Source of the DNA: Escherichia phage vB_ESM-pEJ01
DNA length: 64,000 bases
Sequence record: OP114734.1
Direction: 5' to 3' (one strand)
Part shown: one piece after another, positions 7,953-62,130 of the stretch
Layout: each line of letters begins with the position of its first letter
Position numbering within the stretch: the first letter of the stretch is position 1
Position numbers and translations under genes: made by a program
Notes under the pieces: generated by a model
The model's database searches: none
What the model was told of the DNA's origin: nothing
The model's input: only the letters and a program-made list of their open reading frames with translations

Positions 7953-7979
7953 TTATAGAGAATCTCCCTTGTATGTCAA
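7953..7979 (-). promoter_or_regulatory. early-type promoter cassette with GGGAGA/TCTCCC hairpin over -10
   Basis: TTGACA at 7979..7974, TATAAT at 7958..7953, 16-nt spacer. Confidence 0.55.
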
Positions 7980-8539
7980 CTAAAATTTAAAGATGCAAAC
8001 TCCCCGTGATGAATTTTTGCATATTCATCATATGCTCTAGCGGCTTCCTCCTGAGTAGCAAACGATCCTATGTATTTTCTGTATCCGTTTATCCTTATTT
8101 GTGCTTGCCACGGTCTTTTGCTAGATCCTTTGCGATGAGTAACACCATTATATATGCTCGTGCACCCGTCCATTTTCTTTTTATTGTACATGTTTTGTTG
8201 TTGTGTTGCCTCCCGTAAATTTGGTGGATTGTTGTTTTCTGGATTCCCGTCTATGTGGTCTATTACCTTAACCTGTGTTCCATATTCAAGAAACCAGACA
8301 ATTCTATGTACAAGATATGTAGATGTTCTCTTTTTAACCTTATTGTAAACATCTATTGCCAAATGACCGTAATTTAACTTTTTTGTTTTTACTTTATCAC
8401 CGACTCGGTAGAAATATCCCTCTGGTAGACCATTAAAAGACGGACTATTTGTTTTGTGATATAGAACACCTTCCGTGTGTTCAAATCTGCGTTTTAATTC
8501 CTCTTGAATTTCAGTATTCCAAAATTTCGCACTTTTCAT
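7976..8539 (-). CDS. HNH homing endonuclease with C-terminal AP2 DNA-binding domain
   Basis: HNH_3 motif VDHIDGNPENNNPPNLREAT; AP2-like YNGVTHRKGSSKRPWQAQIRINGYRKYIGSFATQEEAARAYD; free-standing between rIIA.1 block and topoisomerase gene. Confidence 0.8.
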   Translation of the reverse strand: MKSAKFWNTEIQEELKRRFEHTEGVLYHKTNSPSFNGLPEGYFYRVGDKVKTKKLNYGHLAIDVYNKVKKRTSTYLVHRIVWFLEYGTQVKVIDHIDGNPENNNPPNLREATQQQNMYNKKKMDGCTSIYNGVTHRKGSSKRPWQAQIRINGYRKYIGSFATQEEAARAYDEYAKIHHGEFASLNFS

Positions 8540-8540
8540 A

Positions 8541-10364
8541 TTATGACGCCATCCATGCCTTCCTCATGTCTGAATCTTCGCTATAGAGCAAATCGAATAG
8601 CTCTTTATAGTTTTCCGGTAACGTGATGATCTCCATGACAGGATCGTTGATCACGCGATGATAGTCTGATTCTGTGAGCGATGCTAAACCTTTGATATAT
8701 CGAATGTTGTAACCTTTGATATTATCTCGGTCGTTCTCGAAATCTTCTAGGTCATAATACCATCGAACATCATCACCTTTCTTTGGTTCAGCAATGATAA
8801 TAGGTGTTTTGATAAACCGGATTCGTCCATCTTCGAACAATTCAGGCCAACGTGCAAAGAAAGAGATCAGACTAGGTTTAATAGACCCGATCCCGTCGGT
8901 ATCAGCGTCTGTCATAATCGCAATATTTTTGTATTGCATAACTTCCAATGCATCAACACCAAATTGCAAGCCAGTGATCGCCATGATGTTAAAAATTTCG
9001 GCGTTATTAACGATCTTTGCCTCCGGTTGTTCCCACGTTGTAAGAGTTTTGCCTCGCAACGGGAAACCTCCATGTAAATCTTGATCGCGTACAGAGATCA
9101 GATAGTTGATCGCGGAATCACCTTCCGTCAAAAACAGGGTAGTTTCTGCGTCAGTTCCAATAAGGTTAGCTTTAACGTGTTTTGCCACCTTAGCCCGTTT
9201 CGCTGCCTTTGCTGCCTTAGTCGCTGCCGCTTTATCTGCTGCCTCTTTGCGTGCCAAGACTACAGCAATAATAGGCATGATAATGTTTTCTTTCTTCGCA
9301 ATGACTTTAGCCAGCTTTTTAAAATCAAGATCAATATGACGCTTGATATCACCAGTCGGGTTAGTCAAGCGTTCTTTTGTCTGTGAATCAAAACGAAGGT
9401 TAGGCAATTCACGAACAATAAGAATACAGGTCAATCCAGATTTAACCGCAGCTTTAGTAACATCAACCTTATATTCTTTCTTGATTCGTTTTACAATCTC
9501 TTCACAAAGATCATCTGTCACATAATCAACGTGTGTTCCCCCGTTTTTGGTAAACAGACCGTTAGCAAAGGATACTGATTTAAAACCTTCTCCCTCGACC
9601 GCCGGAACTAGGGCAAGTGAAAAGTTTTTATCTTCAATGACAAACGGATCATCATTGTATAGTTTAGCATAATCCTTGAACTTACTAACAATACGTTTAC
9701 CATTAAACTTAAACGTGATCTTAGGAAATATTACGCTCAATGATTGCAGACGATCATGAACAATATCTAAAACAGAGTTGTCCATCATATAACCTTCGAA
9801 GTGGTCGAAGTCTGGACAAAATGTAACCTTCGTTCCCTTCAATTTTGATGGTTTTGATGACCATGTGACATTTTCAGCACCGTTTGTGCATTGAACGGTC
9901 ATTTCTGTTTCGCCGTCACAGGTCACACCAGTAAACCAATCGCTAAAGAAATTTGATAACGACGACCCAACACCGTTCATCCCTTGCGTTAATCGATTGG
10001 TATCATCAAAGTTAGACCCTGCTTTTGTTCGTGTCCATGCGGCTACAGGTTGCGGAATCTGCGTACCCTCTGGGGTAGTAACCATATGTTGAGGAATACC
10101 GCGACCATTGTCTGTTACCGTAACAATATTGTTTTGGATATCGACGCTAATCACATTGGCAAATTCAAAGTTAGTGCGGATCGCCTCGTCTACAGAGTTG
10201 TCGATGATCTCATCAATGATTTTAACCAGTCCAGGAACGTATGAAATTTTTGTCCATTTACCGAACAGGAAACGTTGATGTTCTTCGTAAGTTGTTGATC
10301 CTATATACATTCCTGCACGCTTAAGGACATGTTCACGATCAGATAAAATGCGAAACTCACTCAT
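8541..10364 (-). CDS. 39: DNA topoisomerase II large subunit (GyrB-like), fused gp39+gp60 equivalent
   Basis: 607 aa single ORF; GHKL ATPase and TOPRIM motifs (IIDEIIDNSVDEA, TEGDSA, MTDADTDG). Confidence 0.9.
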   Translation of the reverse strand: MSEFRILSDREHVLKRAGMYIGSTTYEEHQRFLFGKWTKISYVPGLVKIIDEIIDNSVDEAIRTNFEFANVISVDIQNNIVTVTDNGRGIPQHMVTTPEGTQIPQPVAAWTRTKAGSNFDDTNRLTQGMNGVGSSLSNFFSDWFTGVTCDGETEMTVQCTNGAENVTWSSKPSKLKGTKVTFCPDFDHFEGYMMDNSVLDIVHDRLQSLSVIFPKITFKFNGKRIVSKFKDYAKLYNDDPFVIEDKNFSLALVPAVEGEGFKSVSFANGLFTKNGGTHVDYVTDDLCEEIVKRIKKEYKVDVTKAAVKSGLTCILIVRELPNLRFDSQTKERLTNPTGDIKRHIDLDFKKLAKVIAKKENIIMPIIAVVLARKEAADKAAATKAAKAAKRAKVAKHVKANLIGTDAETTLFLTEGDSAINYLISVRDQDLHGGFPLRGKTLTTWEQPEAKIVNNAEIFNIMAITGLQFGVDALEVMQYKNIAIMTDADTDGIGSIKPSLISFFARWPELFEDGRIRFIKTPIIIAEPKKGDDVRWYYDLEDFENDRDNIKGYNIRYIKGLASLTESDYHRVINDPVMEIITLPENYKELFDLLYSEDSDMRKAWMAS

Positions 10365-10467
10365 TATTAAACCTCTTCATAACATAACCATAACTTACTG
10401 CAACCGCCACAAAGACGGCTGCAACAATCATATTAAAAATTGAGTGATTGTCAAGTATATGACTCAT
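10357..10467 (-). CDS. possible tiny membrane protein (36 aa), translationally coupled
   Basis: ATGA overlap with upstream stop and ATGAGTGA overlap with gene 39 start; one hydrophobic helix MIVAAVFVAVAVSYGYV. Confidence 0.3.
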   Translation of the reverse strand: MSHILDNHSIFNMIVAAVFVAVAVSYGYVMKRFNNE

Positions 10468-10637
10468 GACACGCGCACATTTTTATCATAGTACCCGCCA
10501 TTAATCCCGCGCGGGGCAGTTAATCCCTGTTTGCATTCTTTACCACATTCAGGGCATTCTGCCTTTTCACGCTCGGAAATTTTGCGGATTTTCTGAAATT
10601 GACCGTGTTCTTCACAAGAATAATCATATAATGGCAT
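10464..10637 (-). CDS. FmdB-type zinc-ribbon protein (57 aa)
   Basis: MPLYDYSCEEHGQF...CPECGKEC: two CxxC pairs; ATG 1 nt after dexA stop; track ORF 10464..10718 trimmed. Confidence 0.5.
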   Translation of the reverse strand: MPLYDYSCEEHGQFQKIRKISEREKAECPECGKECKQGLTAPRGINGGYYDKNVRVS

Positions 10638-60866: not shown

Positions 60867-60876
60867 AATTCACCTC

Positions 60877-61002
60877 TTATAGATCAGGACGTTCGTCATT
60901 AATTTTACCAACCAAAACCCCATAGAGTTTATCAGGTTGGACTTTACGATTCTTATTGATTGTAGCACGGAATCGACGAGCCACGCTATCTTTATTTTTC
61001 AT
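60877..61002 (-). CDS. possible basic 41-aa protein, translationally coupled (TAATG)
   Basis: MKNKDSVARRFRATINKNRKVQ...; start overlaps upstream stop; stop sits next to GrcA RBS. Confidence 0.3.
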   Translation of the reverse strand: MKNKDSVARRFRATINKNRKVQPDKLYGVLVGKINDERPDL

Positions 61003-61493
61003 TAGTTGATACCTAAGCCAATGAAAATAGGTTGGTCTTCTACATTACCCATCCCAACACTAAGTCGATTCAATTCTAAAAACTGCAATACGCTGTCAGT
61101 AAATCCGCGCATGGTAGTATCTAGGATAAAAATTGTTTTGTCAAGACTACGACCTCGCCATGTGATCGGATTCAGGAAAGTTCGGATAGACGTACAATCT
61201 ACATTTGAAATATTTACATTTTCACCGCGACCGCGATCTCGGATCGTTTTGGCATGTTCTCGCGTCGTTGAAACGATAAAGACACTATAGCCCTTTCGCG
61301 TATAATGGTCATATAACTTGATTGTAGCGTCTGTATGCCCTGTCTGACGGCCTAAATTGATTGAGACAATGGAATCTAGGTCATCAGCAAAATTGCGTCG
61401 CTTACGGCGTTCTATGATGCCATTTACGGCAGAAATACACGCAGCATAAATCAAATCTTTACTTTCTAATTCTAAATCAATGTCAATATTCAT
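61002..61493 (-). CDS. hypothetical protein (163 aa)
   Basis: ORF. Confidence 0.4.
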   Translation of the reverse strand: MNIDIDLELESKDLIYAACISAVNGIIERRKRRNFADDLDSIVSINLGRQTGHTDATIKLYDHYTRKGYSVFIVSTTREHAKTIRDRGRGENVNISNVDCTSIRTFLNPITWRGRSLDKTIFILDTTMRGFTDSVLQFLELNRLSVGMGNVEDQPIFIGLGIN

Positions 61494-61555
61494 GGTAAAG
61501 TCTCCAGTGAACGGGGAGAGATCCTTAGATTGTCTCCCCGTTGATGGTTAATATT

Positions 61556-62130
61556 TTATTTTGGATCTGGGAAATTCAATAGAGCATATTCTCCATAAAA
61601 TTTCCTAGCTGCATTATCATAAGCGATTGCAGCTTCGATTTCTGTGTCATATTGTCCAAGAACATGTCTTTGTAGGTTGACCATTATACTAGCTCTCCAT
61701 TTCTTACGCAAATCCTTCCTGTTACACTTACTAACACCCTTATACACACTAGAAAACTTTTAGACTTCTTCTTTCTATTATGTTGATTTTGCGCGTCGGT
61801 TGCCTCCATAAGATTTGGAGGATTGTTATTAGCAGGATTACCGTCAATATGATCAATTAATCTAACTTGCGTCCCATGTTCTAGAAACCAAACAACCCTA
61901 TGCACGAATAGATGAACTCTAGGAAGACCGTCATCTCTACTATGCCAAAATCTAAGATGACCATCTTTATTTGTTCTGACTTTAACTAAATCGCCGTGTT
62001 TATATCTACTCCCTAATGGTCGTCCTTTGATAGCTTTACTATCGACTCTATAATATAAGATACCCTCTATATGAGCATATCTAAGTTTTATCTCGTTTTG
62101 TAGGGATTCATCCCAATATTTAAAAGCCAT
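61556..62130 (-). pseudogene. HNH-AP2 homing endonuclease gene disrupted by frameshift
   Basis: HNH part (61684..62130, VHRVVWFLEHGTQVRLIDHIDGNPANNNPPNL) and AP2 part (61556..61747, YKGVSK..AAIAYDNAARKFYGEYA) lie in different frames and overlap by 64 nt; intact paralogue at 7976..8539. Confidence 0.6.

Follow-up and report, generated by a model that had tools for sequence, protein, structure and literature searches.

We describe five genes for free-standing HNH homing endonucleases in a stretch of 64,000 nucleotides from Escherichia phage vB_ESM-pEJ01 (OP114734.1), referred to here in its full length as the window. The window is the early and DNA-metabolism region of an RB49-like phage of the T4 type, genus Krischvirus. 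Every gene in it lies on the minus strand, and it is ~97% identical to Shigella phage Sf20, to phages kvi and KFS-EC, and to RB49; no database record identical to it was found. A sequence-only reading had counted five homing endonuclease genes (HEGs), and this count is borne out both by the open reading frames (ORFs) and by matches to Pfam and PHROG. Four of the ORFs are intact and one, HEG5, is decayed:

7976–8539, minus strand: HEG1, an intact HNH_3 (I-HmuI-like) and AP2 gene of 187 amino acids, directly after gene 39
19957–20706, minus strand: HEG2, an intact Mob-like HNH gene of 249 amino acids, between uvsX and gene 40
45663–46418, minus strand: HEG3, an intact HNH_3 and AP2 gene of 251 amino acids, between dam and nrdC
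59811–60404, minus strand: HEG4, an intact NUMOD4 and HNH_3 gene of 197 amino acids, between vs.6 and nrdC.11
61556–62130, minus strand: HEG5, a decayed HNH_3 and AP2 gene, with the HNH_3 part at 61684–62130 and the AP2 part at 61556–61747 in another frame

By blastn the window is collinear with RB49 except for the HEG insertions, one RB49-specific segment and two small non-HEG indels, and the large insertions specific to the window are the five HEGs and no others (7980–8568, 19930–20716, 45676–46405, 59815–60412 and 61572–62214). A gp40 scan of IMG/VR viral contigs gave only three close Krischvirus loci, and GenBank records were used for the comparisons instead. Among 58 Krischvirus records, representing about 52 distinct genomes, HEG1 has 8 carriers (JSE and FL15 confirmed among them), HEG2 has 4, HEG3 has 7, HEG4 has 8 and HEG5 has 13, and the records without a given HEG have a clean empty site there. 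As each HEG is present in a minority of the records and the others have empty sites, these genes are clearly not fixed at identical positions throughout the relatives, and the presence/absence polymorphism beside core genes that had been anticipated from the sequence is found at every one of the five sites (4–13 carriers per HEG). The further expectation that the sites would be points of gene-order variation did not hold, as the genomes stay collinear and vary there only by insertion or deletion and by local replacement of alleles. All four combinations of presence and absence are seen for HEG1 and HEG5, and also for HEG4 and HEG5, which lie only ~1 kb apart. The window carries all five HEGs, and no database genome carries more than two of the five.

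The insertions do not come alone. With each HEG goes a diverged tract, found on only one of its sides and formed by the 3′-end of the gene upstream, that is gene 39 (large subunit of topoisomerase II), uvsX, dam, vs.6 or the endolysin gene:

8541–8573, minus strand: re-coded 3′-end of gene 39, ending in MRKAWMAS (QRKIWMQS in HEG-less phages)
20758–21260, minus strand: diverged 3′ part of uvsX, ~79% nucleotide identity to HEG-less alleles
46396–46682, minus strand: diverged 3′ tract of dam, ~280 nt with ~71% nucleotide identity to HEG-less alleles and a sharp common distal boundary
60413–60662, minus strand: terminator-like hairpin of vs.6 (60447–60424) and diverged 3′ tract of vs.6
62145–62256, minus strand: upstream portion of the HEG5 cassette, preceding the gene, with a hairpin (62145–62168), the replaced end of the endolysin gene and a short diverged tract
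62176–62214, minus strand: replacement C-terminus of the endolysin, ending in MELDKKVYPDPV and a stop codon

These tracts are 10–45% diverged from a backbone that is otherwise 97% identical, and the products of the genes downstream of the HEGs are ~96–100% identical. The distal boundaries of the tracts, as seen in strings of diagnostic sites, are sharp and common to the carriers; the exceptions are FL04 at vs.6, and Sf20 and JEP8 at uvsX. The association is clearest for dam, where all seven HEG3-carrying records match the window at 95% identity or more across the tract and all 51 records without HEG3 are 60–80% identical, with 85 diagnostic sites within 46408–46682 co-segregating with HEG3. 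The last ~33 nt of gene 39 are 100% identical in six genomes with HEG1 and show 54–57% identity to three genomes without it (12–13 co-segregating diagnostic sites within 8547–8573). The vs.6 tract extends for ~250 nt with 71–75% identity to HEG-less alleles and is shorter in FL04. At the endolysin gene, the final 13 codons are exchanged in the HEG5 insertion for others that encode a C-terminus similar to the original but not the same, and the HEG5 ORF itself terminates at the former endolysin stop codon (FPDPK followed by the stop). Together with this replaced end a tract of ~80 nt reaches to ~62256, with 11 diagnostic sites at 62221–62256 co-segregating with HEG5. The longest tract is that of uvsX (~540 nt), where amino acid identity to HEG-less alleles is 60–92% per bin of 25 amino acids; it is identical in KFS-EC, and only two Krischvirus records are at least 99% identical to it. 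The window and KFS-EC share a block of ~5 kb (~18000–23000), centred on HEG2, of ~99.8% identity with at most 3 mismatches per 500 nt, and outside it they typically differ by 5–30 mismatches per 500 nt (2–3% divergence).

The HEGs themselves are well conserved among their carriers. Overall their DNA is 94–100% identical, and for HEG1, HEG3 and HEG5 it is 98.8–100% identical among carriers whose 500-bp flanks differ by 1–7%. HEG1 is 99.1–100% identical in kvi, W115, G5211, JSE and FL15, and HEG3 is 99.3–99.9% identical in ELT3, GEC-3S, PHB13 and Sf20, the GEC-3S homologue being ORF63 (PMC3528706). Gene conversion would leave two footprints, flanking sequence inherited along with the element and an element better conserved than the backbone around it, and both are found at these loci.

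The domain content of the proteins agrees with homing endonucleases. Judged against the Pfam gathering cut-offs (HNH_3, 24.8 bits; AP2, 33.3; HNH, 21.4; I-TevI_DNA-bd, 27), the HNH_3 domain is above threshold in HEG1 (51.8 bits, E = 6e-14), HEG3 (50.2, E = 2e-13), HEG4 (40.3, E = 2.5e-10) and HEG5 (40.5, E = 2e-10 over 61684–62130), and HEG1, HEG3 and the intact homologues of HEG5 all have the conserved catalytic motif IDHIDGNP.NN..PNLRE. An AP2 domain is matched in HEG3 with 35.6 bits (E = 1e-8), and with 25.7–28.3 bits in HEG1 (E = 1e-5) and 26.4 bits in intact HEG5, the E-values of these two lying between 1e-5 and 1e-6. HEG1 had been described as an HNH-AP2 gene, and its AP2 match lies under the gathering score; HEG1 also matches the I-HmuI structure (PDB 1u3e, E = 4e-5), and its C-terminus matches plant AP2/ERF structures (E ~1e-5). 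For HEG3 the sequence-only reading had proposed two AP2 domains, of which Pfam recognizes one. The C-terminal 84 amino acids gave no Pfam match, and a home-made family hidden Markov model finds an AP2-like match there over a core of 19 residues only, IGRFDTEDDAARAVNAY; a second full AP2 domain is not supported by Pfam, and we speak of a degenerate AP2-like repeat. HEG4 is a NUMOD4-HNH gene, as had been read from the sequence (NUMOD4, E = 2e-18), with a match to I-HmuI (PDB 1u3e, E = 3e-12) and a C-terminal DNA-binding region that is weakly I-TevI-like and common to HEG2 and HEG4. HEG1, HEG5 and the RB49 gene RB49p040 are paralogues (42–47% identical by phmmer comparison), and with HEG3 as a more distant member the proteins are 35–47% identical to one another. 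No further HNH paralogue was found when all six-frame ORFs of the window were searched by phmmer with all the HEG proteins.

HEG2 belongs to a different group. In agreement with the sequence-only reading, we place its start at 20706 rather than at 20733, where the program-made ORF begins, on account of a GGAGG ribosome-binding site and the start annotated in relatives. It matches PHROG 655, "homing endonuclease" (E = 3e-49), has a canonical HNH motif (HH..N..H, aligned to McrA and Cas8-HNH), and over amino acids 10–115 is 47–53% identical (tblastn) to features annotated as mobE or homing endonuclease, with five such places in T4. We call HEG2 Mob-like because of the PHROG match, the motif and the ~50% N-terminal identity to mob genes of T4-type phages. 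Its C-terminus has a match to I-TevI_DNA-bd (27.6 bits, E = 2.7e-6).

That HEG5 is disrupted had been seen in the sequence alone, and comparison explains how. Relative to the intact 576-nt ORF of FL04, JK32, SAP and JSE, one nucleotide has been lost from a run of five A residues (61758–61761) between the two domains. The 13 copies in the database are without exception intact and span one base more than the copy in the window. A sequencing error in this homopolymer as the sole cause is less likely, because the window copy has an additional unique change of R to M (ATG 61807–61809) in the family-invariant NLRE motif, which becomes NLME. Extra matching places per record had hinted at ectopic copies of HEG5; these were rejected when a search with HEG5 only gave one place per record, at the same site.

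The insertions are precise relative to RB49, and at all five the ribosome-binding site of the downstream gene is kept intact. The following features lie at the borders of HEG1 and HEG2:

7939–7979, minus strand: promoter/stem-loop with a perfect sigma-70-type promoter (TTGACA-16-TATAAT), the spacer forming a 13-bp stem-loop
19942–19970, minus strand: promoter-like site (TTGACA-17-TAAAAT, 11/12) in the 3′-end of the HEG2 insert, facing gene 40
20725–20743, minus strand: intrinsic-terminator-like hairpin of uvsX just upstream of HEG2, a backbone feature that RB49 has too

The ATG of HEG1 lies 1 nt past the stop codon of gene 39, and its own stop codon (TGA) lies inside the −35 hexamer of the promoter at 7939–7979, the downstream junction of the insertion falling exactly at this hexamer. 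By its architecture the promoter/stem-loop is a PeSL-like regulatory cassette of the backbone. JSE and FL15, which carry HEG1, lack a small RB49p004-like ORF (~180 bp) present at ~7370–7560 of the window, an independent small-ORF indel close to the HEG1 site. HEG2 is a clean insertion of 787 bp relative to RB49, between the uvsX terminator and the ribosome-binding site of gene 40, which confirms where it had been placed; it had, however, been described as flanked by terminators, and we find a single hairpin, that of uvsX, with the promoter-like site on the downstream side. HEG3 has junctions with both dam and nrdC, between which it had been located: its ORF overlaps the last 23 nt of dam, its stop codon lies 1 nt before the ATG of nrdC, and it is the dam sequence specific to carriers that creates its Shine-Dalgarno sequence and ATG. 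HEG4 is bordered by the vs.6 terminator on one side and by the ribosome-binding site of nrdC.11 on the other. The statement that all five insertions are intergenic does not hold for HEG3, with its overlap of dam, or for HEG5, which replaces endolysin codons.

We consider it highly probable that these are five free-standing HNH homing endonuclease cassettes of a Krischvirus phage, spread by intronless homing with co-conversion. That they are mobile cassettes beside conserved genes was the core of the sequence-only reading, and it is supported by the insertions and by the presence/absence polymorphism; endonuclease activity and homing, and with them cleavage, target location, immunity and biased inheritance, we infer by analogy with the homing of the T4 seg and mob genes. 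HEG1 to HEG4 are probably active and HEG5 is decaying. Each cassette consists of the endonuclease gene and the re-coded 3′-end of the conserved gene immediately upstream. In a mixed infection the enzyme would nick or cut the allele that lacks the HEG, with the 3′ part of this upstream gene as the most likely place, and after resection of the break the phage recombination machinery would repair it from the HEG-carrying genome, copying the HEG together with the diverged tract. The tract may then serve two purposes, namely to make carriers resistant to their own enzyme and, because it is 10–45% diverged, to force crossovers outside it.

We found no T4-type late promoters (TATAAATA) within 400 nt upstream of the HEGs, so expression driven by late promoters is not supported and the genes look like promoter-less cassettes. 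As such they would ride on early polycistronic transcripts. HEG1 and HEG3 could do so by abutting or overlapping the upstream stop codon, and HEG2, HEG4 and HEG5 would be expressed by read-through, since they lie just behind a terminator-like hairpin.

Several observations weigh against this interpretation. The HNH match of HEG2 (ORF 19957–20733) scores 18.8 bits (E = 0.0019), below the cut-off of 21.4, and the AP2 matches of HEG1 and HEG5 are likewise below their gathering score. Sf20 and JEP8 carry HEG2 with a third, mosaic allele of the uvsX 3′-end, and because they pair the gene with a different allele, the link between tract and immunity is not one-to-one for HEG2. When the diverged tracts of uvsX and dam were searched by sensitive blastn for a donor lineage, no sequence from outside Krischvirus came closer to them than the alleles without a HEG. 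Because the database sequences are related, the counts behind the associations do not represent independent events, and we found no data on cleavage, target sites or inheritance for Krischvirus HEGs in the open literature. Finally, the sharp boundaries shared by carriers could equally reflect a single ancestral introgression that was later spread by ordinary recombination.

The last point leads to the main rival of homing, in which the cassettes are passive mosaic modules that entered once from a distant phage and have been spread or lost through recombination in the flanks or at PeSLs, the endonuclease having no role. One ancestral event predicts just such common boundaries, and the downstream junction of HEG1 lies exactly at the −35 hexamer of a PeSL-like promoter/stem-loop, an element proposed to mediate the shuffling of modules in RB49 and phi1 (PMC2839356); a non-HEG module of 177 bp with 56-nt direct repeats is polymorphic too. 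We nevertheless think passive spread unlikely. All five large window-specific insertions encode endonucleases, the four intact ORFs keep their catalytic motifs, and conservation is higher in the HEG DNA than in the flanking sequence. Linked divergence confined to one side, and in every case to the gene upstream, is not what general shuffling predicts, and the homologous mob and seg genes of T4 are experimentally mobile (PMC2988022).

It is much less probable still that ancestral phages carried the HEGs and that the empty sites arose by later deletion. HEGs do decay, as HEG5 has done here, and selfish genes are expected to be lost over time, but empty sites are in the large majority (45–54 of the 58 records), and tracts that are 10–45% diverged from a 97% identical backbone indicate a foreign origin. 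Moreover, the empty alleles hold 3–31 nt of junction sequence of their own as well as native 3′ gene ends that are absent from carriers, and hence carriers and empty alleles differ by replacement and not by simple deletion. Least credible of all is that the proteins have been domesticated to benefit the phage, as AP2-type DNA-binding regulators or as nucleases in competition between phages: AP2 and I-TevI-type DNA-binding domains are present, I-TevI also acts as a repressor and a carrier can gain from marker exclusion driven by its HEG (PMC2988022), but the patchy minority distribution and the one decayed copy argue against an essential function, and no carrier-specific partner genes were seen.

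We therefore favor homing with co-conversion, and tentatively raise one extension of it. The presence of all five cassettes in one phage might be a natural record of a super-Mendelian ratchet by which repeated co-infections gathered every HEG in one lineage, with the tracts marking the recognition regions of the HNH-AP2 enzymes to within tens of bases. If true, this possibility, which we hold to be the weaker bet, would allow predicted targets in gene 39, dam and the endolysin gene to be tested directly. The comparative data also predict more generally where HNH-AP2, Mob-like and NUMOD4-HNH enzymes cut. For annotation and quality control, the cassettes explain five of the largest differences between the window and RB49 and flag one pseudogene, and each of the five genes upstream of a HEG would in this phage end in a foreign 3′ allele that has hitch-hiked with the HEG. 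In phage-therapy cocktails that contain Krischvirus, the HEG loci would be expected to sweep through co-propagated relatives.

Two further sites in the window are empty here and occupied in a relative:

15516–15526, minus strand: empty site between genes 61 and 56, where KFS-EC carries an HNH_3-AP2-type ORF of 187 amino acids; the window and RB49 are empty
32669–32673, minus strand: empty site for RB49p040, an HNH_3-AP2 gene (565 bp) that RB49 has after gene 47; the window has none

RB49p040 (26380–26934 of the RB49 stretch compared) thus shows a polymorphism reciprocal to that of the window HEGs, and the ORF of KFS-EC (MH560358, positions 5496–6059 of the stretch compared), which is unannotated, marks a further polymorphic HEG site. 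Other differences among these genomes concern different kinds of sequence. At 11548–11780 the window has a 177-bp module, lacking in RB49 and Sf20, with an ORF of ~29 amino acids between 56-nt direct repeats of 86% identity; this shows the gain of a non-HEG module through repeat-mediated recombination, and it may be the equivalent of the phi1-specific ORFan009.1 (PMC2839356). Around ~50169–50344 the window is about 217 bp shorter than RB49 (RB49p073/p074 region), and a stretch of 176 bp there can be aligned at two places in RB49, a sign that a small ORF may have been deleted or duplicated by way of repeats. At the left end of the window (234–469) the alignment with Sf20 is interrupted and its offset shifts by ~270 bp, in a group of small hypothetical ORFs that lie upstream of gene 52 (annotated gyrA); this is another small indel. 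Compared to KFS-EC, to which the rest is ~98% identical, the window has 56–139 mismatches per 500 nt at 11500–12000, 15000–15500 and 27500–28000, and these mosaic patches are not associated with the five HEGs.

HEGs are a well-documented and ordinary feature of T4-type phages. RB49, phi1 and JSE have been reported to hold 2, 2 and 7 of them, with "mob-like HNH" and "HNH-AP2" as classes (PMC2993671, Table 5), ORF040 of RB49 has been described (PMC2839356), and our five have 99–100% identical counterparts in GenBank, mostly annotated as homing or HNH endonucleases. Since the variability of HEGs in the RB49 group is published and near-identical counterparts exist, the finding as such is already known; the linked re-coded tracts and the presence of all five HEGs in one genome are new but modest additions. 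HEG1, HEG3 and HEG5 have the same architecture as the HNH-AP2 class (RB49p040, JSE, RB16/RB43; Petrov et al., 2010, Table 5) and share with it the motif DHIDGNP.NN.P.NLRE, but they occupy other sites than RB49p040, and HEG3 has the extra degenerate AP2-like repeat. For this class we found no member that has been characterized biochemically. The closest enzyme with a known structure is of another kind: I-HmuI, the HNH nicking endonuclease of Bacillus phage SPO1 (PDB 1u3e), has a catalytic HNH_3 domain like those of HEG4 and HEG1, and HEG4 has NUMOD-type modules, but I-HmuI is intron-encoded with different DNA-binding modules, whereas the HEGs of the window are free-standing.

HEG2 resembles MobA–E of T4 in its plan, with an HNH domain first and a separate DNA-binding region at the C-terminus, in standing free between conserved early genes and in being a promoter-less cassette (PMC2988022). 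It differs in that its C-terminal half is unlike that of any Mob protein, and only the first ~40% of the protein aligns. Many of the T4 seg and mob genes are promoter-less cassettes with embedded promoters for downstream genes (PMC2988022). The sites recur as well: in T4 segA follows uvsX and targets it, mobA lies by gene 39 and mobD by nrdC.11 (PMC2988022, Table 1), so that the position of HEG2 downstream of uvsX is in T4 occupied by an unrelated gene of the GIY-YIG type. A different NUMOD4-HNH gene, of 28% amino acid identity, stands at the HEG4 site in JSE, an exchange of HEGs at one site as for SegH/Hef and mobC/mobE in T4 (PMC2988022).

In T4 the cut made by free-standing endonucleases falls in a conserved neighbour, hundreds of bp away from where the endonuclease gene is inserted, and the flanks are co-converted (PMC2988022). 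The window HEGs share with intronless homing by SegF, SegG, SegA and MobE the location of the enzyme gene beside a conserved gene expected to hold the cleavage site, and the co-inheritance of flanks; they differ from it in that the evidence is comparative and that the tracts are short (33–540 nt) and always on the upstream side. Nuclease genes have been found to sit at the boundaries of genetic exchange in phages (PMC10448857), a view for which the window offers a clean enterobacterial example. Like the HEGs of that 2023 study, those of the window stand at sharp transitions between high and low identity, near essential genes; the study is centred on ICP1 and its HEG families, and the blocks seen here are smaller than its islands of >10 kb.

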